A stretch of 64,000 nucleotides of DNA from Perna viridis (taxonomy: Eukaryota), in the NCBI GenBank assembly GCA_037379345.1, contig CM074518.1, forward strand, positions 17,732,001-17,796,000. The letters are read 5' to 3'. The position numbers and the translations under genes are program-made. This document shows, piece by piece, positions 1-25,875 of the stretch (within the stretch, counting starts at the first letter, position 1; every line of letters begins with the position of its first letter). The notes beneath the pieces were generated by a model. That model did no database searches. It was not told the origin of the DNA and worked only from the letters and a program-made list of their open reading frames with translations.

Positions 1-1577
1 AATTCGTGCAACGCGTAGGATGTGTTTTTTTTCAAAATTATGAAGGAACTAATCTTATTAGAATTGAAATAAATCAAGGAAACTCCATAGTTTAGTTAAA
101 ACATATTTTAATAGAAATAAACAAAATGGATCAAACACAAGTAAAATAACATACTTTTGAAGTCTTCTCCTGAAATTATAATAATTACAATAAAGTATAG
201 GTATACGAATTTAATAGTGTTATTTAAGTTTAACAAAGTAAAGGCGGGACAGTTAAAATATAACATTAGGTGATGCGTACTAATTCAGCTTAAGAAATAA
301 GGAATCTTTTAGTGCATTTAACGAAGAAATATACACGGTCCAACACAACCTGATGTTGTTTTTTTCTGATAGATTTTCTGCAAGACCAAAAAGTAGATAT
401 AAATCTATATTGCAAAATTCAAGAACCCACTGTAGGTCGCTCATAAGTTTGGTTTTTTTCACTGTTATAAAGATGGCATACAAAAAGTAATGGTGAGCAG
501 GCTCGTATATAAGACCAAATAGGCACAGAATACTTTATATAATATTAACTTTATACAAATCAAAGTTTAGAAAGGACGAAGAATGACGAAGTTGAGTTAT
601 CAATTTATTTTAAATTTCTCGGGTCCTAGCAAAAATGTTTAGGAACGGTTAATTTATCACTGGTGTTCAGTAAACACGATTTAAATTTTTGGGTGATTGA
701 ATCTCTTTTAATGCTCCGTCTAGTTTATTCCACTCGACTTTTGTTGATGAAAAAAAAGAATTCACCAGTAACCGATAACCTACAGAGTAGAGCAATGATA
801 TCTTCAACATTCCAAAGCGGACATTCTGTAGTAGATTAAATGGTCGGTGGAGTTAGATCATGTAAATAATCTGGAGCCATTTTATAATATATTTTATGAA
901 ATAAATTTAATTTCTTACGTTTTCATCGATCTTCTAGTTTTTTCCATCCAGTTTCGCGATATACTTGCCCAGATTTGGTGAATATCGGTAAGCCAGTTAT
1001 TATATTCTAGCAACTTCGAGATGTAAAGTTTCTAGCTTTTGAGTGTTTACTATCCCACAATTATTCCAGACTTCTAAAGCATATTCAAATAAAGGTCGGA
1101 TATGCACTGGTCGTTATTTAACCCATGGCTATCGCTCGGTATAAAACAATGCGACAAAAATGGCGAGCCCGTGGTAAAGCAATGATAAAATTGAGTTTCC
1201 GAGACTTGTTTCTTAATCCATGTTTTGTTTTCGTTTCGTTTTGTTTGTTTTGTTTTTAAAATTGTTTTTCTGTGCACTGTTTTCTATTTATTATACTTGT
1301 AATGAATTATATGTATGGCATAAGTATAACCCATGAATCCTTTTCGCTTCTTCATATCGAATTGTCTGTTATCCCAACATCAAGATGTGTATGATATTAT
1401 AAAAAAAAGGGTATATGCCAACTGATACGATAACATAAGAAAACTTTATTCTCATTCGGCATGTCATACAAACACAAGCTCCAAGGAATTTTTGACCGAA
1501 TATAAAAATAATTAATATATGTTCAGAGTAGTATACATGATGGGTTCAGGTCGCATTTCTCGGAAGGTGCGCCCCAA

Positions 1578-1689
1578 TGCGCATGCGCATGGCGTGACAT
1601 CCGGTGGTCGAGGACAGGAAGTGATCTTTGGGTGTGACCCGAAGTGACCATTTACCACTGACCACTGACCCTTCTGACCCTTTTGACCC
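1578..1689. promoter_or_regulatory. Cluster of host transcription-factor-like motifs in the Polinton terminal region
   Basis: TGCGCATGCGCA (NRF1-type palindrome) 1578-1589; ACAGGAAGTG (ETS-type) 1614-1623; three TGACCC half-sites spaced by 3 nt at 1666-1689, mirrored at ~6180-6212. Confidence 0.4.
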
Positions 1690-2157
1690 TTATCACCCAC
1701 GCTATAGTGTATTAGTCCGACGCGGACGAGTTCAAAACGGGACCCGCCTCCTCATTAGCGTCGTCCTATGGATTGGAATCGTTAATTATATAAAAAACAT
1801 TCTTTCATTAGCGTCGTCCTATAGATTTAAATGTGTTAATTACGACCAATGAAATTCAAATGTGTTAATTGCGACCAATGGATTTCAAACGTGTGAGATC
1901 CAATCGCGTGCGGTCGCGGGGAGGATAAACACTCCGGGCATTTTCGAAATCGTCATTCTCTTGCAGACTTTCAGAAGAGAAAATGTAAGAATGTTAACCT
2001 CGAAGTTAGCTTTTGGCGCATGGTTTCCTCCGGGGTTTGGGTTCATTGTAGTGTTTGTTTGTGTTGAACCAAGCCTCGAAGTAAGTTTGCATACTTGCAA
2101 CCAGGGACCCTCGTGGGTAAGGTTCAGTATTGACGTTTTTTAGTTTTCTGTTGTAGA

Positions 2158-2812
2158 ATGAATTCTCAAAAGAGACTCAGCCTGACTAAAACTACGTGAA
2201 ACTGGTGAAAACAACATCTACCGAAAAAGTGATACCGTATCTCGTTAGAAAGTGATATCTTATCCGAAGAAATGAGCTTCCAAGGCTTTTGATGTTTTTT
2301 GCCAGACCTTAATGGAACTGAAAAAGGACGATCTGGTGAGCGTGTTGGCCCACCCAGAAGAAGACATGGAAATATGTTATCCGCAGTATTTAAAATTCAA
2401 TTTAGATGGAGGCGTTCACCTCGAAGTGGACGGTGGAATCGTTCAACTGATCCAAGATCCGTTGTCAATGAACTTTCCCCTCGATCGGTGGAAGGTGTTG
2501 GAAAATAACGTAGATGAAATTTTCAGTGTAGTGGAATGTATAAAGAACAATCGATTAGGTTACATGAGCGAACATTTAGGGGCAAACGTCTACGTCACGA
2601 CCGGAAACGATAGTTGGTGTATGGATATGAGACGTTACTGGATATCACCCGACAACCTGAGACACCCCAGTGAGCATGGAATCAGTTTGACATTCGAACA
2701 CTATGATACATTGTTGGACGTGATGAAAATCATTCCGGACCTAGTTCCGGGTTTAAAGGAGACACTTCCGTGTTATATGACACATCAAAACGTAGAAGAT
2801 GTCGTGTGTTGA
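2158..2812 (+). pseudogene. CARD + PC4-like fusion, left copy (CARD disrupted; PC4 part open as ORF 2312-2812)
   Basis: ATG at 2158. C-terminal HLGANVYVTTG..CMDMRRYW..HPSEHGISLTFEHYDTL is a PC4/Sub1-type motif. CARD region has frameshifts and an internal deletion relative to the right copy. Confidence 0.8.
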
Positions 2813-3416
2813 TTTGAATGTAATCCGGATGGATTGTTGTAATGTTATGAGTAAATGTATTATTTTCGTCTCGGGTTTTATGAATAAAAACGCCATGATA
2901 CATTTTCGATACTTTATTGACAAAATCGACAACTATATCTGTAGCTTCTTCGGGGTCGTCCAGGGTCCTGGTTACGTGCGTCATGGGTCGTCCTGCACAT
3001 TTGTGTATGAGGTAAAATATACGATGTTGTCCACACGCGATAGAATCTTCTTTTTGTACTCGAACTGCGTTGTACGTCCAACTACTGCAATGTTTGTTCA
3101 TAAAATTCAGGTAGGCGTGTTGAAAGGATGGTCTTCCCGTCGGGTCGTAGTATTCTCCTCTCGAATTGGCGTCTACGTATATGGCTACCCAGTGTGTGCC
3201 GGGGAGATTATCCGGATCCGTTTTTCCCACTAAAGCAAAGGGAACGTTTATGTCTGGTGAAGACTGCACTTTATTTTTGCTCCTTGGTTTTACATGACTT
3301 CTGGTGGTGTTCATTGTATATCCCGTATAGCTTCTGCTATTTTTGATGAAACATCCTCTCATTTTTTGCAACTTTCTTGATTTATTAAGGTCATCGATTC
3401 TTATGCGAGGATGCAC
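2730..3416 (-). CDS. Adenain-like cysteine protease (Polinton maturation protease), left copy with a foreign N-terminus
   Basis: PGTHWVAIYVD..GEYYDPTG..VQ..SIACGQH retains the catalytic His, Asp, Gln and Cys. The protease-homologous part is ~2890-3255; sequence upstream of PDINV does not match the N-terminus of the right copy. Confidence 0.85.
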   Translation of the reverse strand: MHPRIRIDDLNKSRKLQKMRGCFIKNSRSYTGYTMNTTRSHVKPRSKNKVQSSPDINVPFALVGKTDPDNLPGTHWVAIYVDANSRGEYYDPTGRPSFQHAYLNFMNKHCSSWTYNAVRVQKEDSIACGQHRIFYLIHKCAGRPMTHVTRTLDDPEEATDIVVDFVNKVSKMYHGVFIHKTRDENNTFTHNITTIHPDYIQINTRHLLRFDVSYNTEVSPLNPELGPE

Positions 3417-3467
3417 GGTGCTCCGCTCTGGTTTCCACTTGTATTTGATATTCTGACGTTGTACGTT

Positions 3468-3796
3468 TTACGTTTTTAATACAGCTTCACGATCTTTGTT
3501 CCGAAATCTTCTCTATACAGTTTCATTTATAAGTGTCACATCTGTTTTATTGGCTTTTTTCATTCCTCCAGCTGGGCTACCACGAGGTCTTTTGGGGTCT
3601 CATTTTCTTTTGTCAGTTCATTCTTTGATTTGCAATGTACCCTACCTGTCGTCCATTGCACGTGTATGGCACCACGACTTGTGATCTCTTCTAAATGAAT
3701 CCCTCGACAGGGAACTATCTTGCAAATCTTTATTGCTCCGGGTGCGTCCATCTCATTTGCGAGTCAACCAAGAAGTGTCCACATATCCTTTTTCAT
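3468..3796 (-). pseudogene. Decayed small ORF (about 110 codons) between ATPase and protease; unknown, possibly death-fold
   Basis: ATG at 3796, just after the ATPase stop. In the right arm the homologous TAA lies about 10 nt before the protease ATG. Needs one frameshift and several stop corrections. Confidence 0.4.
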
Positions 3797-3798
3797 CT

Positions 3799-4478
3799 CT
3801 ATTTATACTTTTCCTTATCTAAGAACACATCCTGAAATTCCCATGGGAAAATGTTGCTTCTCAATCTCAAGTTGTCTAGAGTGTCCTGTTTCATTTCGAT
3901 CAATAAATATCCGTGGGGTTTGGCAGTGGCATACTCGTACGATTTCACAAAGTATTTTGTCTTATTGGGGAACATTTGTTGGGCCATGGTCATGGCCTGT
4001 GATACGTCTCTATGATTTTTAAAAAGAACCAGGTAATGAGCATTCAGACTGATGGTTCTGTGATACTTGGTTTTGTTGAACAGATTCTGAACCAGCAACA
4101 TAACACCTATATTTTTATAGTGAGAATATTTCGTGAAGAGATGCAAGATAGATTCGGTGACCGAATTCATCATATTGTCTAGAATAAGCAAATATTTCTC
4201 TCTGGGATCCAAGGTGTCAAGGTCGGGGAGTCTTTGTACAAAGTCGACATCCTGCATGGTTCCATAAATGGTCTGGTACACGTCGTAGCACCACGTTATC
4301 CGATCGGGTCTAGGCATCATCATGTGCTTTACGTTTTGAACGAATCGGCGTACAAACATCGTTTTTCCACTTCCGGTGGGTCCTCCTATGATGCTGGTAA
4401 AGGGATGGGCAAAGGGGATGAAGTGGTCATCGAAGTATCCTTTGGGAACGTTTTGAGTTTCATCCTGGATCGATTGGT
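3799..4478 (-). CDS. A32/FtsK-family DNA packaging ATPase of Polinton type (5' end truncated at the arm junction)
   Basis: HPFTSIIGGPTGSGKT (Walker A), LLILDN (Walker B, DD>DN), FTKYSHY, VQNLF, RTISLNAHYLVLFKN.RD, PHGYLLI, RLRSNIFP. Confidence 0.93.
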
Positions 4479-4605
4479 CTCGTGGTAGACCAGCTGGAGG
4501 AAAGAAAAAAGCCAATAAAACAGATGTGACACTTATAAATGAAACTGTATAGAGAGGATTTCGGAACAAAGATCGTGTAGCTGTATTAAGAACGTAAAAC
4601 AGTGC

Positions 4606-5013
4606 ATGATGAACACGACAGACATTGACGCCATAGTGAAAAAGCACCCGGTCACCAAACACGTATTTGAAGGGATGTATGCGAGGAACAGATTCCCCAG
4701 AGACATAAACGTTCCCTTTGCTTTAGTTGGAAACACAGATCTGGATAATCTCCCCGGCACACACTTTGTAGTCGTATACGAAGACGCCAATTCGAGAGGA
4801 GAATACTACGACCCAACAGTAAGACCACCCTTTCAACACGCCTACCTGAATTTTATGTACAAACATTGCAGTAGTTGGGCGTACAACGCAGTTCGAGTAC
4901 AAGAAGAAGATTCTATCGTGTGTGGACAACATTGTATATTTTACCTCATACACAGGTGTGCAGGACGACCCATGACGCACGTGTCAAGGACCCTGGACGA
5001 CAAAAAACAATAA
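4606..5013 (+). CDS. Adenain-like cysteine protease, right copy (native N-terminus, C-terminus clipped)
   Basis: MNTTDIDAIVKKHP..FEGMYARNRFP..LVGNTD..PGTHF..GEYYDP..VQ..CGQHCIFYL. Ends prematurely at RTLDDKKQ, where the left copy continues RTLDDPEEATDIVVDFV. Confidence 0.88.
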   Translation: MMNTTDIDAIVKKHPVTKHVFEGMYARNRFPRDINVPFALVGNTDLDNLPGTHFVVVYEDANSRGEYYDPTVRPPFQHAYLNFMYKHCSSWAYNAVRVQEEDSIVCGQHCIFYLIHRCAGRPMTHVSRTLDDKKQ

Positions 5014-5748
5014 ACGGCAACTTCTACGTTTTGATGTGTCATATAACACGGAAGTGTCTTCTTTAAACCCGGAACTAGGTCCGGAATTGACTTTCATCAC
5101 GTCCAACAATGTATCATAGTGTTCGAATGTCAAACTGATTCCATGCTCACTAGGGTGTCTCAGGTTGTCGGATGATATCCAGTAACGTCTCATATCCATA
5201 CACCAACTATCGTTTCCGGTCGTGACGTAGACGTTTACCCCCCCCCCCCACCCCTTAAATGTTCGCTTATGTAACCAAATCGATTGTTCTTTATACATTC
5301 CACTACACTGGAAATTTCATTTACGTTATTTTCCAACACCTTCCACCGACCGAGGGGAAAGTTCATTGTCAACGGATCTTGGATCAGTTGAACGATTCCA
5401 CCGTCCACTTCGAGGTGAACGCCTCCATCTAAATTGAATTTTAAATACTGCGGATAACATATTTCCATGTCTTCTTCTGGGTGGGCCAACACGCTCACCA
5501 GATCGTCCCTTTTCAGTTCCATTAAGGTCTGGCAAAATACATCAAAAGCCTTGGGTCCTCTTCTGGGCAGGAGTTCCAGTAAGGTTCTCGCCCTCGCCGC
5601 TCTGGTCGGTTGATTCACGATGTATTCGCTCATTTCTTCGGATAAGATATCACTTTCTAACGAGATACGGTATCACTTTTTCGGTAGGTGTTGTTTTCAC
5701 CAGTTTCACGTAGTTTTTAGTCAGGCTGAGTCTCTTTTGGGAATTCAT
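5010..5748 (-). pseudogene. CARD + PC4-like fusion, right copy (frameshifted)
   Basis: From ATG 5748, with one +1 correction near 5660: MNSQKRLSLTKNYVKLVKTTPTEKVIPYL-LESDILSEEMSEYIVNQPTRAARARTLLELLPRRGPKAFDVFCQTLMELKRDDLVSVL, a caspase-2/RAIDD-like CARD pattern. Followed by PC4-like region; further frameshifts at the poly-C run (~5240) and ~5090. Confidence 0.85.
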
Positions 5749-6356
5749 TCTACAACAGAAAACAAAAAACGTCAATACTGAACCTTACCCACGAGGGTCC
5801 CTGGTTGCAAGTATGCAAACTTACTTCGAGGTTTGGTTCAACACAAACAAACACTACAATGAACCCAAACCCCGGAGGAAACCATGCGCCAATAGCTAAC
5901 TTCGAGGTAAATATTCTTACCTTTTCTCTTCTGAAAGTCCGCAAGAGAATGACGATTTCGTCCGGAGTGTTTATCCTCCCCGCGACCGCACGCGACTGGA
6001 TCTCGCACGTTTGAATTTCATTGGTCGCAATTAACACATTTAAATCTATAGGAAGACGCTAATGAATGAGTGGTTTTATGTAATGAACAATTCCAATCCA
6101 TAGGACGACGCTAATGAGGACGCGGGTCCGTTTTGAACTCGTCCGCGTCGAACTAATACATGATAGCGTGGGGTGGTAAGGGTCAAAAGGGTCAGAAGGG
6201 TCAGAATGGTCATTGTCCAGAATGCTCAGTGGTCAACAGGGGTCACTTCTGGTCCTTGGCTACCGAATGTGATGTCATGTGCATGCGCATTGAGGTGCAC
6301 CTCCCTGCACCACCCGAGAAATGCGATCTGAACCCATCATGTATACTACTGTTCAG

Positions 6357-13800: not shown

Positions 13801-16800
13801 TCATTAATGTGTCTTTGTGTCGTCGTTTAAGATTTTAGTTTATTTTGAAGAAGTGTCATGGTTCTGTGTTAATGAATTTTATTACCTTTGTTGTCAGGCC
13901 TTTAAGAGCTAACTTGAAGGTGTGTTAACATTTATTGAAGACCTTTTGGTGATCTCTGGAAATATTTACTATTTTTTATAAAGGTTATACAATGTTGTAT
14001 TTTACCATATCAGTTCCTTATTCTATTGTCAATCTAGAAAGTTCATCAAAGAACTAAATTTTTCACCTGGATATCTGGTGATCAGGTTTTCACCTGGATG
14101 TCTGGTGATCAGGTTTTTACCAGGATGTCTGGTGATCAAGTTTTCCAGTTTGTTTCAAAAACTAAATCATGATAAAGAGAGTTGAAGTCTAAAATAAAAG
14201 TCAAACATTCAATGCAATCAATCCAGCTCAAGCTGTGTAGTAAATTATCATTTCAATTCAAGATTTCCAAGTTTAGCCTAAAAAAAATGAGGGGAAGGAC
14301 ATTCAGAATTTTCTTTATGACTCAATGACTAAGTATACCTATATATTCTTCAAGACTGATAAATCCATCTTTGTCCTTGTCAATGTCTTCCATTGTTTCC
14401 TACAAGAATAAGTACATATCTCATCACACAATAATGCTCCTGAATGATATAGAACTTGGCTTGACACATTAATTATTTCAAATCATTTGAAAATTAAGTG
14501 TGATATAGAACTTGGCTCGACAAATTAATTATTTCAAATCATCTGAAAATTAAGTGTGATATAGAACTTGGCTCGACAAATTAATTATTTCAAATAATTG
14601 AAAATTAAGTGTGATATAGAACAATGCTCGACAATTTAATCATTTGAAATCATTTGAAAATTAAGTGAGTTCAGCTTCTGAATAGTTAGAATGTAAACAA
14701 AGCATCATTGTAATTCTTGTGTGTGAAAAATGAAAACTAAAAGAAGGAAGAAGTATTAAATTGTATTGCTTTTCATTACATACAGTGTACATCAAATGAT
14801 TCCATGATATATTTTTCTGATGTACATCATGTAAATAAAGAATGCATATGTCAAGAGATCTTTATAACACAATTGCTGACAAAGTATTTAGTTCCCTTCA
14901 TATTCTGATTAGACAGAAAACCACCAATAAACATCTAGATATTATAATAATTATATCAGAGAGGAACTTTCAATTTCTGCATAATTTTGATATTATTGCC
15001 AAACATCCAATAACTTCTTAATGCCAAGATTCATTCATTATTATCACTTTAAAATATGCAAACAGGTCTTTTCAAAGAGATGGACATTTTGCCCCACCCC
15101 TCTACAATTATTTTTAAAATCTTGGAATCAACATAAAAAATATTTGGTGTTTTAGTTATATGTAATGATATCACAACAGTAAACAGTATTGTGACATCAT
15201 ACATTGTATCGATCTACAAATTTTATACTTACACCTTTTTTTGTGAAATTAACTTTTAGTCTCCATTGTCACTTTTGTTTCTATTTCACCCATCTTTCCC
15301 TAACATGAATATATACATGTAATACCTGTACTACTATATCTCTCATATGGTCTGCCTCCTCTGGATGAGTAAAATGAGAAAATTCTGTTTTGTCTAACTT
15401 CCCATCTTTATTTTTATCAGCAGCTTTCCACCTCCTTTCATCACGGTTGATCATATCTTTGTAACTGAAGTTTGGTGAATTTTCATCATTGTGATCTGTA
15501 AAATAAAAACAATGTAAGTTTACACTATTATGCCAAAACCAACAATCAAGATTTTTTCATGATTTCTAGTTTTCTTGCACATCAATTAAAGCTTGAAATT
15601 TAACCAGGCAACAAAAATGTAAAATATCAAGCAACTATTTAGTTTCAAAGGTAAGAACTGAGCAAAATGTCCAGATTTCAAATGAATTTCATTGTTTCAA
15701 AACATTTCATAGTTAACAACAGATTTTTTAGCTCTCTAAAATAAAGAAATAAAAATATGGCATTATTGAAAATTTAAGTAATACCCCACCACGTAATGGT
15801 AAAAAAAGGTCAAAATAATAAAAAAGGCCTAACTCTTAAACTTCATTTTGTATTTTGCTGAAAATTGAACAAAACCACTATGTTATGGTTTTTAACAACC
15901 GTGCAGTTAAAAATTCATTGACCCGTTCGTTCTTGAGGTAACATCAGGAAACTGTCAGACACACAACTTTTCCAAGAGTATCACATTATACATTGCCACT
16001 ACGTATTGCAGTATATAAAAAATTGTATATAGACTATAACATTCTTCAAAATTAGTACCAATCAGACAGCCAATGCTGGTAAAAATAGCAGTGGGCTTGC
16101 AGAAATTTGCTCCCAAGCCAATGTATCTCATATAAAATTCTTTTCAGATTAAGGGTAAGGGCTTCTTGTCTAAAATGTAGACAATAAAGACTGCTATAAT
16201 AGGCTGGAACTGAAGAAACTACTGAAAATAAAGAAGCTTGAAGCCATATGGAGTTTGAAAACAGAAGAAAAAGTAAAAAACAAATAATATATCACAGCAG
16301 TCATGAATTTAAATGTTTACCTAGAATAACCCACTTTCAGCAGGAAATAACTTTTTTTTAAAAATGAGATAAGACAACCTACATGCAAGGGAAATAAACC
16401 TGTCCCAAGTAGATACCTTACCAGTTTTGTTTGTATTCCCTATAGCAGTAAAAATACAAATATAAGACACAATAGAATTTGGTGAGTAGAGGATTAGACA
16501 TACATTGTAAAACCAAGAGGTGAGATAAGGAGTACTATTACTGATACATTGTACAATTAAACCTGTCTATTAGGCAAACAAAAATATTTTTTCTGTTTCC
16601 TGCTACCCTACCTACCTTAGATATTGTGTACCTCCCCAAAACATTTTATGGGCATTTTTGCTCAAGCTCTGTCAAAGTCTTGATTGTTTTCCTTTTAAAT
16701 CAATGTAAAATGTTTTTCAAGAATAAAAAATTTCCCAACTGACCTACCCTATTTTTTACTTGCTGGTAAGCAGGAAACAAGACAATTATTTTTTTGCCTT

Positions 16801-24749: not shown

Positions 24750-25875
24750 TTAAAAATACTTAGGAATATTTTTTTGCTAGAAGTGGAAGTTTTCTTACGA
24801 CTAGAAAATAGTTGAAAGTACAAGCAACAAAATCCATGTATAGTCTATTACAAAACTGTCGTAAACATAATTTATCTATTAAATGTCAATTAGATTTGTT
24901 TGAAAAAGCCGTTTTACCAATTATTTTGTACGGTTCAGGAATTTGGGGTTTTGAAAATCTTGATATTTTGGAGCAGGTTCAACTAAAATTCTACAAACTT
25001 ATTTTGAATCTTAAACAATCAACACCGAACTGTATAGTATACGGCGAGCTAGGGAGATTTCCTATTTCATTATCGGTAAAGATTAGAATGATAAAATTTT
25101 GGTGTCGTTTAGTAAATGGAGATGAGAATAAATTTTCTTCTATTCTTTGTAAATTATTGCATGTGAATTTTGTAAACTATGGCTTAGAAAGCAAGTGGTT
25201 GGCATTCATTAAACATATTTTTGATGAGTGTGGTGTATCGAATGTTTGGCGTAACCCAGAGTATTTTTCCGCCGATTGGATTGAAAAATGTGTTGAATTA
25301 AGACTAACTGATCAGTTCAAACAAAATTGGTCCTCTGATGTATTCAACTCTTCAAAAACATTAAATTATAGGATATTCAAGGTAGACTTTGGATTTGAAA
25401 AATATATATCTATTTTACCATCATATCTGATGTTTTATTTATGTAAATTTAGGTGTAGCTCCCACATATTACCAATTGAAGCGGGGAGGTGGACAGATAC
25501 ACCTAGAAACGAGAGATTACGTACGTTCTGTGATTCACACGATATAGGTGACGAATTTCATTATATTTTTTCTTGCAAGTTTTTAAGGGAGAAAAGGAAA
25601 AAATTCCTCCCAATTTATTGTTAAATTGGGCCAACTATTATCAATTTTATCACATTATTCAATACTGCTCATGTCGCTATTTTAGAAAATTTGGCAAAGT
25701 TTATAAAAGTTACTCTTTTTAAGGTCGTCCCTCCTGGTTAGATGACAACAATATTTTTACATAAATATGTACCATTCTTGTTACACATGCACTGTAAAAT
25801 TGTATCATTTTATATTATGTTTGCAATTTTTCGATAACATATGTTTATGAGAATAAAGTATTCATATTCATTGAA
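24750..25875 (+). mobile_element. 5'-truncated non-LTR retrotransposon 3' end (RTE-X/L2-like; clade uncertain)
   Basis: ORF 24812-25624 with PIILYGS.IWG, STPN..VYGELGRFP, KFRCSSHILPIEAGRW..C..IGDEFHYIFSC; 3' end GTTTATGAGAATAAAG followed by an ATTC-like tail. Confidence 0.85.

Follow-up and report, generated by a model that had tools for sequence, protein, structure and literature searches.

Background

Does a Polinton encode a protein in which a CARD is joined to a PC4-like fold, and what would such a protein do in its host? This question is raised by a decayed element in the 64,000 nucleotides analysed here (henceforth, the window), for which an initial annotation had proposed a CARD–PC4 fusion acting as a viral decoy of host death or immune signalling. 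The gene is conserved and of wider relevance than this one broken copy.

A deleted, end-duplicated Polinton

The element is a deleted, end-duplicated, and decayed Polinton of 4.8 kb (1527-6350 of the window; Table 1) in an AT-rich animal genome of 723 Mb (G000). It starts with AGTAGT at 1527 and ends with ACTACT at 6350, i.e., with terminal inverted repeats of the AGT type, and the identical hexamer on either side forms a 6-bp target-site duplication (chance about 5e-4). The element is near-palindromic, with 1527-2277 pairing with 5628-6350 (86%), 2280-2815 with 5004-5554 (94%), and 2955-3255 with 4701-5001 (92%); the region between them encodes an A32-like ATPase and two copies of an adenain-like protease. 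The CARD-PC4 gene is the first gene inside the terminal repeat, as initially annotated, and it is so in both arms (2158-2842 on the plus strand, 5748-5004 on the minus strand).

No retroviral-type integrase was found in the window copy. The sister copies L032, L034, L039, L048, and L050 have one (tblastn, E-values to 4e-20, with a query scoring E 1e-8 against Pfam rve), and these integrases, together with the terminal repeats and the target-site duplication, bear out that the gene is Polinton-encoded. Sister copies also add polymerase-like and capsid-type genes, the latter called by position, 30-40% inter-lineage identity, and known motifs. The protease frame of a sister copy matched the ASFV S273R protease at an E-value of 0.17 only. 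Fragments in sister copies matched the PolB of a second Polinton lineage in the same genome (E 1e-5 to 2e-4) and gave no match to PF03175, which the second-lineage polymerase does match; a polymerase without PF03175 match is given as a mark of the Beta class (Starrett et al., PMC8502044).

Table 1 Features of the element (positions in the window)
Feature	Positions	Strand	Evidence or remark
Left target-site duplication, 6 bp	1521..1526		Same hexamer after right end
Left terminal repeat and 5' non-coding region, starts AGTAGT	1527..2157	+	86% inverted identity to 5628-6350; matches sister-copy ends
Left-arm CARD-PC4-PC4-Cys/His gene, broken	2158..2842	+	Two CARD frame breaks and a CARD deletion, stop near tail
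Left-arm adenain-like protease, partial	2880..3255	-	92% to 4701-5001; tblastn E 1e-8 to second-lineage protease
Packaging ATPase (A32/FtsK-like)	3799..4451	-	Pfam Pox_A32 match under the cut-off (E 0.0017); second-lineage ATPase at 34% identity (E 8e-34)
Right-arm adenain-like protease, 3' end deleted	4603..5013	+	tblastn E 9e-6 to second-lineage protease
PC4 repeat 2, helix end, and first half of Cys/His tail	5004..5095	-	Last Cys pair deleted in right arm
PC4 repeat 2, the clear one; D-x-R-x-x-W kept, basic pair changed to E-H	5096..5273	-	Pfam PC4 E 1.7e-4; human PC4 1pcf E 2.4e-4 (profile)
PC4 repeat 1, shortened, without the 11-residue hairpin with R/Y and TKKG motifs	5283..5447	-	Alignment; sister-frame model
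CARD, 88 codons, frame broken near 5660	5484..5748	-	Pfam CARD E 8.5e-12; break map
Right 5' non-coding region and terminal repeat, ends ACTACT	5749..6350	-	Pyrimidine tract with TAG directly before ATG
Right target-site duplication, 6 bp	6351..6356		Same hexamer as left

As in the window, the CARD-PC4 end is present in both arms of several other copies (L039, G000:C2:69.197-69.206 Mb; L043, C13:7.525-7.532 Mb; L122-L124, C12:37.128-37.147 Mb). An inverted repeat of 2982 bp in the second lineage spans the CARD-PC4 gene and part of the integrase. Replacement of one end by the other recalls the terminal duplications of poxviruses. The two-ended layout of L042 was dropped as an end duplication, its inverted repeat running on into flanking DNA. 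The second-lineage locus L111-L113 (G000:C13:19,084,351-19,103,774) has the termini ACTAC...GTAGT, the reverse of those in the window, with a 6-bp duplication. Elsewhere, the window holds a 270-codon open frame without Pfam match (24812-25624, plus strand), a 56-bp tandem array of four copies (14431-14667), and several copies of a dispersed repeat family in both orientations (40692-63110).

The CARD-PC4 gene and its breaks

The right-arm gene starts with an ATG at 5748 (minus strand) and comprises an 88-codon CARD, two PC4-like repeats, and a Cys/His tail. Its natural frame 5238-5672 alone matched Pfam CARD (PF00619) at E 8.5e-12 with 45.4 bits (cut-off 23.9), and the next frame, 4987-5316, matched Pfam PC4 at E 1.7e-4 with 21.5 bits, i.e., below the cut-off of 25. 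The left-arm gene retains a 178-aa open frame (2276-2809) with a Pfam PC4 match at E 3.7e-4. Among sister copies, the CARD of L010 reached 59.3 bits, likewise above the PF00619 cut-off, and an unbroken CARD matched Pfam CARD at E 3.8e-16; the closest solved relatives of this sister-copy CARD are all apoptotic (RAIDD, E 1e-8; Apaf-1, E 1e-5; CED-3). Two unbroken orthologues of the window type (P0216, 253 aa, 49% identical; P0217, 279 aa) have Pfam CARD and PC4 both over the cut-off. The fusion is real.

The details of its decay differ from the initial annotation, in which one frameshift correction restored the gene. The right-arm copy has three frame breaks (at CARD codon ~30, in a G-run around 5240, and around 5090) and has lost its final codons by deletion. 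Two PC4 repeats are present as annotated, in the opposite order of quality: in the alignment, the first is the degenerate one and the second the clear one. None of the 28 copies examined for breaks (26 genome loci and the two window arms) is whole. The break common to both arms, at CARD codon ~30 and thus within the domain, occurs in these two arms only, and the remaining copies have their own scattered breaks. This shared break is probably older than the arm duplication, since the two arms share 94.0% identity, whereas the best match of the left arm among sister copies is at 92.2%.

As the shared break sits inside the CARD and in only 2 of 28 copies, CARD and PC4 are one ORF. Two separate ORFs, which the initial annotation had considered in view of the shift shared by both arms, or a programmed shift, are ruled out by natural frames that cross the junction of CARD and repeat 1 (in the window, L007, L008, L010, L011, L015, and L017), by the scattered breaks, and by the unbroken orthologues. 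In L006, the natural frame extends from mid-CARD through to the stop. The window's own gene copy is dead and without a function of its own.

Upstream of the ATG (window 5749-5920, minus strand, and sister copies), splice-like signals were observed, namely a TAG-containing pyrimidine tract (TAG conserved in 20/21 aligned copies), GTAAGA (16/20), and GTAAGG (10/18). On this pattern, a 5'-UTR intron ahead of the CARD-PC4 ATG is possible; no joint with the intron ends was found in sister-copy contigs from four runs guessed to be RNA.

Predicted folds and DNA-contact residues

Structure prediction, suggested by the initial annotation as a check, returned a CARD fold for L059, an unbroken second-lineage gene, and two PC4 repeats for both L059 and the window-type frame of L006. 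In the L059 model (pLDDT 82.6), a six-helix domain (helices 2-87) fits the Apaf-1 CARD with an rmsd of 1.1 over 84 columns, and the PC4 repeats fit human PC4 (1pcf) with an rmsd of 0.8 over 66 columns. Both repeats of the L006 model (pLDDT 86.2, 70 sequences), which covers only three helices of the window-type CARD, align to Pur-alpha repeats I-II (3k44; Z 11.7, rmsd 3.5, 120 residues); the match of this model to PC4 has Z 5.7. Because of this alignment over both repeats, we predict that a pseudo-dimer is completed by the short repeat 1. The fold of each repeat is shared with human PC4, Pur-alpha repeats I-II, and the phage T5 PC4 homologue, and the two-repeat pseudo-dimer is like that in 3k44; PC4, in contrast, is a homodimer of one repeat, and neither PC4, Pur-alpha, nor the T5 homologue has a CARD or a Cys/His tail.

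Foldseek searches of the PDB with the two-domain models gave no match at E ≤ 0.001. The top viral structure match (BFVD) of the L006 model was MOSUB of a Branchiostoma adintovirus (E 4.4e-5). MOSUB of adintoviruses/Polintons (Starrett et al. 2021, PMC8502044; UniProt A0A5H3CIS2) has the same tandem PC4/Sub1 fold, with named models of ~200 aa, and its gene is drawn beside the ITR in the genome map (PMC8502044, Suppl. Fig. S2). A CARD on MOSUB is not mentioned in the text and accessible supplement of that paper. The PC4 part of the window gene is the adintovirus MOSUB gene, and the whole is a CARD-bearing variant of MOSUB.

In the tail, the residues C, H, C, and C are conserved in 60, 58, 57, and 59 of 61 homologues, which suggests a zinc site. 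The repeat-1 arginine and T-K/R motif are present in all 61 other homologues and the repeat-2 basic residue in 60 of them; these basic and aromatic residues are the ssDNA contacts of PC4. In the window subfamily, the 11-residue hairpin of repeat 1 is absent and the basic pair of repeat 2 is E-H in 6/6 rows, with R and W kept. Net charge is -4 to -9 for the window type vs a median of +2 in the other homologues (range -4 to +11, n = 60). Since the repeat is also short and the motif also altered in the unbroken P0216 and P0217, the loss of contact residues is not decay. Tethering to ssDNA at replication sites, as initially proposed, does not suit the window subfamily, which lacks these basic contacts; for members with intact motifs it is plausible.

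The Polinton family of the window has a second, CARD-less tandem-PC4 gene near the ATPase (L034:1302-1634, L037:5020-5587, L039:6690-7231). The first repeat of this paralogue matches Pfam PC4 at E 1.6e-13. The sequences suggest that labour in this family may be divided between the CARD fusion and the CARD-less paralogue.

Distribution across Polintons and proteins

The second Polinton lineage of the genome has a PF03175-type polymerase, and its capsid, ATPase, and integrase proteins are only 27-40% identical to those of the window lineage. Here, a CARD is found on 11 of the 16 tandem-PC4 genes examined, nine of these directly upstream of the integrase and two beside the polymerase. Three are unbroken (L059, L064, L132), so that the search for intact copies in Polintons, another of the initial suggestions, was successful, and P0216 and P0217 add the orthologues of the window type. 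All CARD-PC4 genes of this genome whose surroundings were examined lie within a Polinton or its remnant, and 25 of the 77 Pfam CARD matches in the genome fall on Polinton CARD-PC4 copies.

A homologue search retrieved 82 proteins, 46 of them with both Pfam domains. Named proteins with both come from Mytilus, Saccostrea, Ostrea, and Crassostrea and are labelled uncharacterised or "CARD domain-containing"; further named homologues are from Pinctada and, with a partial CARD, Haliotis. Among 12 metagenome loci, L151-L154 have an oyster-type CARD-PC4 gene upstream of an integrase, and in L152 and L153 capsid, protease, ATPase, and polymerase genes come next. The L155 sequence stops short of the CARD, PC4 repeats without CARD match are found in L156-L160, and L161-L162 are weak. 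The best 150 of 6303 representatives comprised 24 with both parts, 124 with PC4 only, and 2 with CARD only, and homologue clusters comprise as many as 372 sequences. Tandem PC4 thus represents a general gene, and the CARD is an addition found, where names exist, in molluscs. Scans of viral contigs gave no match for P0032 and P0016 and elsewhere one weak match of 43 residues, and a PHROGs search gave no match at a useful E-value. Among 269 candidates at E ≤ 1e-8, no longer protein with a CARD alone was found, this search being uninformative.

Such a distribution bears on a purely structural role without a host target, in which self-association of the CARD would chain PC4 modules into a cooperative ssDNA-binding filament. 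The prevalence of PC4-only members among the best 150 representatives marks the module as a general viral gene, and in the second lineage the CARD is strongly diverged with the PC4 motifs intact, both as this role would have it. The window subfamily, however, has a canonical CARD and yet lost its DNA contacts, a state shared by its unbroken orthologues, and CARD-less members evidently function without a CARD, so we regard the filament as improbable.

Further domain combinations were observed. At L135:6592-7367 (minus strand; G000:C15:11.156 Mb), in or beside a split integrase, a PC4-like fragment is followed by a coiled N-terminal stretch and a C-terminal CARD; this CARD matches Pfam at E 1.5e-13 and groups with the CARD-PC4 clade described below. 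The second-lineage members L064, P0005, P0019, P0202, and P0244 have an extra Cys/His-rich stretch of ~50 residues without Pfam match before the CARD. In L072:1369-2046 (minus strand), a zf-PARP is joined to PC4 (Pfam E 8e-7 and 3.7e-6), a pairing reported in the bay scallop (PMC9223095).

Origin and selection

In the first CARD tree, the window CARD stood with mussel and oyster CARD-PC4 proteins at 83/85, unstarred. By AU tests, neither a group of all CARD-PC4 CARDs (p-AU 0.44) nor one of the window type with host L083/L097 (p-AU 0.084) could be rejected. The second tree (42 rows, 88 columns, simple model, 20 of the 77 genome CARD matches sampled) was derived from the first by adding nine rows and removing seven, chosen after the first result. 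Here, 21 CARDs of the CARD-PC4 type were separated from 19 host CARDs as a single starred clade (98/95), with those of P0218 and P0227 outside it. Fresh capture from the CARD genes of this host, for which the initial annotation had named caspase-2/RAIDD, is not favoured, as the window CARD groups with the other CARD-PC4 CARDs. The PC4 tree gave the same groups as the CARD tree, with a long branch for the window type. One old CARD-PC4 fusion, inherited with the element, would fit these trees best.

Among variants shared by at least two copies, an excess at third codon positions was found in the CARD (37/87, p 0.046), in repeat 2 plus tail (32/69, p 0.017), and in the protease (34/70, p 0.006), the p values being modest and uncorrected for several tests. 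It was absent from repeat 1 (25/68, p 0.31), from non-coding sequence (15/56, p 0.88), and from singleton variants. Raw dN/dS, the measure initially suggested, was 0.50-0.68 and close to the neutral expectation of 0.59-0.82; hence, selection is read from the codon-position test only, which indicates, at sequence level, that the reading frame was under selection while the family was active.

That every window-type copy is broken and singleton variants are neutral is what would be expected of a chance fusion or a neutral passenger without function. Against this, the gene has been kept in two Polinton lineages and in mussels, oysters, pearl oyster, and abalone-named proteins, and unbroken orthologues persist at 49% identity. 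This conservation largely refutes a passenger, which is left as scarcely credible.

Identity with published oyster genes

CgCARDCP-1 of Crassostrea gigas is reportedly a protein of ~250 residues with an N-terminal CARD and a C-terminal PC4. According to the title of its description, it recognises LPS and activates NF-kB (Wang et al. 2018, PMID 29751033). It is listed among genes stimulated by LPS and Vibrio (PMC9330033). A study of scallop PC4 (PMC9223095) refers to it as a PC4 protein with a part in the immune signalling of oysters, counts 2 to 18 PC4 genes per bivalve, and interprets them as host expansion. The flat-oyster "caspase-2" of Gervais et al. 2019 is 77% identical to CgCARDCP-1 (PMC7836458).

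For the flat-oyster gene, a 2018 paper of the same group gives "Casp 2" primers with a 242-bp product (PMC6104086). Searched against 163 loci (0.94 Mb) with up to 3 mismatches, both primers matched L154 only, with 0 and 2 mismatches and 242 bp apart, one site lying in the last CARD helix and the other at the start of repeat 1. In the supplement of PMC6104086, a contig with 75.7% identity to a C. gigas "Caspase-2" of 250 aa is given in reverse orientation, which fits the reversed primer labels of the paper. The 2018 and 2019 flat-oyster caspase-2 genes are assumed to be the same. Immediately downstream of the L154 gene are a broken Polinton integrase and then capsid-type genes.

On the sequence match, the family of the window fusion is very likely that of CgCARDCP-1 and flat-oyster "caspase 2", so the fusion, of which the initial annotation knew no description, has very probably been in the literature as a host immune or apoptosis gene. 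The published oyster "immune gene" is likely viral cargo. Compared with these proteins, the window subfamily is shorter and without the basic ssDNA-contact residues; oyster-type members are ~25% identical to the window type and keep them. The link of the CARD-PC4 protein to Polintons seems unreported: literature searches, with subscription journals and bioRxiv supplements outside their reach, found no paper tying the two, nor did term searches of PMC8502044, PMC11131425, PMC11161782, and bioRxiv 2026.10.13.758929.

A host reading was weighed at this point, in which domesticated copies serve as sensors combining a CARD with a nucleic-acid or LPS receptor (an AIM2/RIG-I-like layout), or Polintons kill cells infected by a larger virus. 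The architecture is sensor-like, transcripts were measured in oyster haemocytes (without significant change of "caspase 2" on Bonamia contact; PMC6104086), the portion of the L154 gene on its contig is open beside the broken integrase, and the large homologue clusters would also agree. Yet the examined CARD-PC4 genes of this genome all sit in Polintons or remnants, and window-type copies decay like the adjoining protease. A sensor or defensive role of this kind is held to be very doubtful.

Proposed role

Two viral CARD systems offer comparison. The ranavirus CARD protein (GIV-CARD, FV3 vCARD; PMC4457926) is likewise virus-encoded and sets an early, anti-apoptotic precedent; it has 91 aa, consists of the CARD only, belongs to viruses of vertebrate hosts, and is ICEBERG-like, whereas the CARD described here is RAIDD/caspase-2-like and fused to two PC4 repeats and a tail. 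In equine herpesvirus 2, v-E10 (PMC2198798) is a viral CARD protein that activates NF-kB via CARD-CARD contact; it is a Bcl10 homologue with a prenylated tail and without PC4 fold, and window-type frames have no C-terminal CaaX prenylation motif. Adintoviruses also carry homologues of Bcl2, IAP, and gasdermin (PMC8502044).

We propose, with confidence a little short of even, that the protein of functional elements would serve the virus as a CARD adaptor, engaging host CARD signalling, raising NF-kB, and favouring cell survival. This role is placed first because the only functional report on a relative gives NF-kB activation. Several points weigh against it. An over-expressed CARD can activate NF-kB non-specifically. 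The CgCARDCP-1 data stem from an oyster-type member with its basic residues intact, and the assignment of CgCARDCP-1 to the present family is indirect. Flat-oyster "caspase 2" did not respond significantly to Bonamia, the selection signal is modest, and all window-type copies examined are broken. In related replicons, protein-primed replication with strand displacement exposes single strands, and the PC4-fold module of most members would bind those of the Polinton; its two repeats would pair within one chain as a pseudo-dimer, which the tail would close by binding zinc. In the window subfamily, where the basic contacts were lost and the CARD-less paralogue kept, the fusion may mainly present the CARD, in the manner of a scaffold. 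The CARD would then bind a CARD protein of the host homotypically and activate NF-kB as v-E10 does.

The initial annotation had instead made a decoy the default, and this default gives way to the NF-kB report, known from its title. As a decoy in the manner of the CARD-only proteins of ranaviruses, the CARD would bind the prodomain of caspase-2-like caspases, or RAIDD-like adaptors, of the host and keep them from assembling, whether the protein is tethered to DNA or not. Such interference with caspases fits too, because the closest solved relatives of the CARD are the apoptotic RAIDD, Apaf-1, and CED-3; it is also in line with the inhibition of apoptosis by the grouper iridovirus CARD (PMC4457926), with the frog virus 3 CARD in the fold list (Z 4.7 over 44 residues), and with bivalve CARD caspases being caspase-2-like (PMC7836458). 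A decoy is, however, at odds with activation as the single reported function of a relative and with a protein that is not CARD-only, and its tethered form with the missing basic ssDNA contacts of the window subfamily. We consider it the main rival of the NF-kB adaptor, possible though rather unlikely.

Implications

An extension of the adaptor role, which we regard as unlikely, is that mollusc Polintons own an innate-immune adaptor, in which CARD and ssDNA module would couple replication intermediates or immune stimuli to NF-kB and so drive the immune state of the host. If so, resident Polintons would sense and steer host immunity, for their own expression or in defence against larger viruses; viral genes would underlie the studied oyster "LPS receptor", a number of "caspase-2" annotations, and a large part of the "PC4 expansion" in bivalves; and in the window's branch, the two tasks would have been parted between a CARD scaffold and a paralogue that binds DNA.

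The present findings link a Polinton accessory gene to existing bench data and would move an oyster gene, published as one of host immunity, to a virus-like element. If this is right, qPCR results for oyster "caspase 2" and CgCARDCP-1 would reflect multi-copy Polinton genes, the CARD and PC4 gene counts of bivalves would be inflated by viral cargo, and the contest between animal Polintons and host defence would become testable with an already cloned protein.
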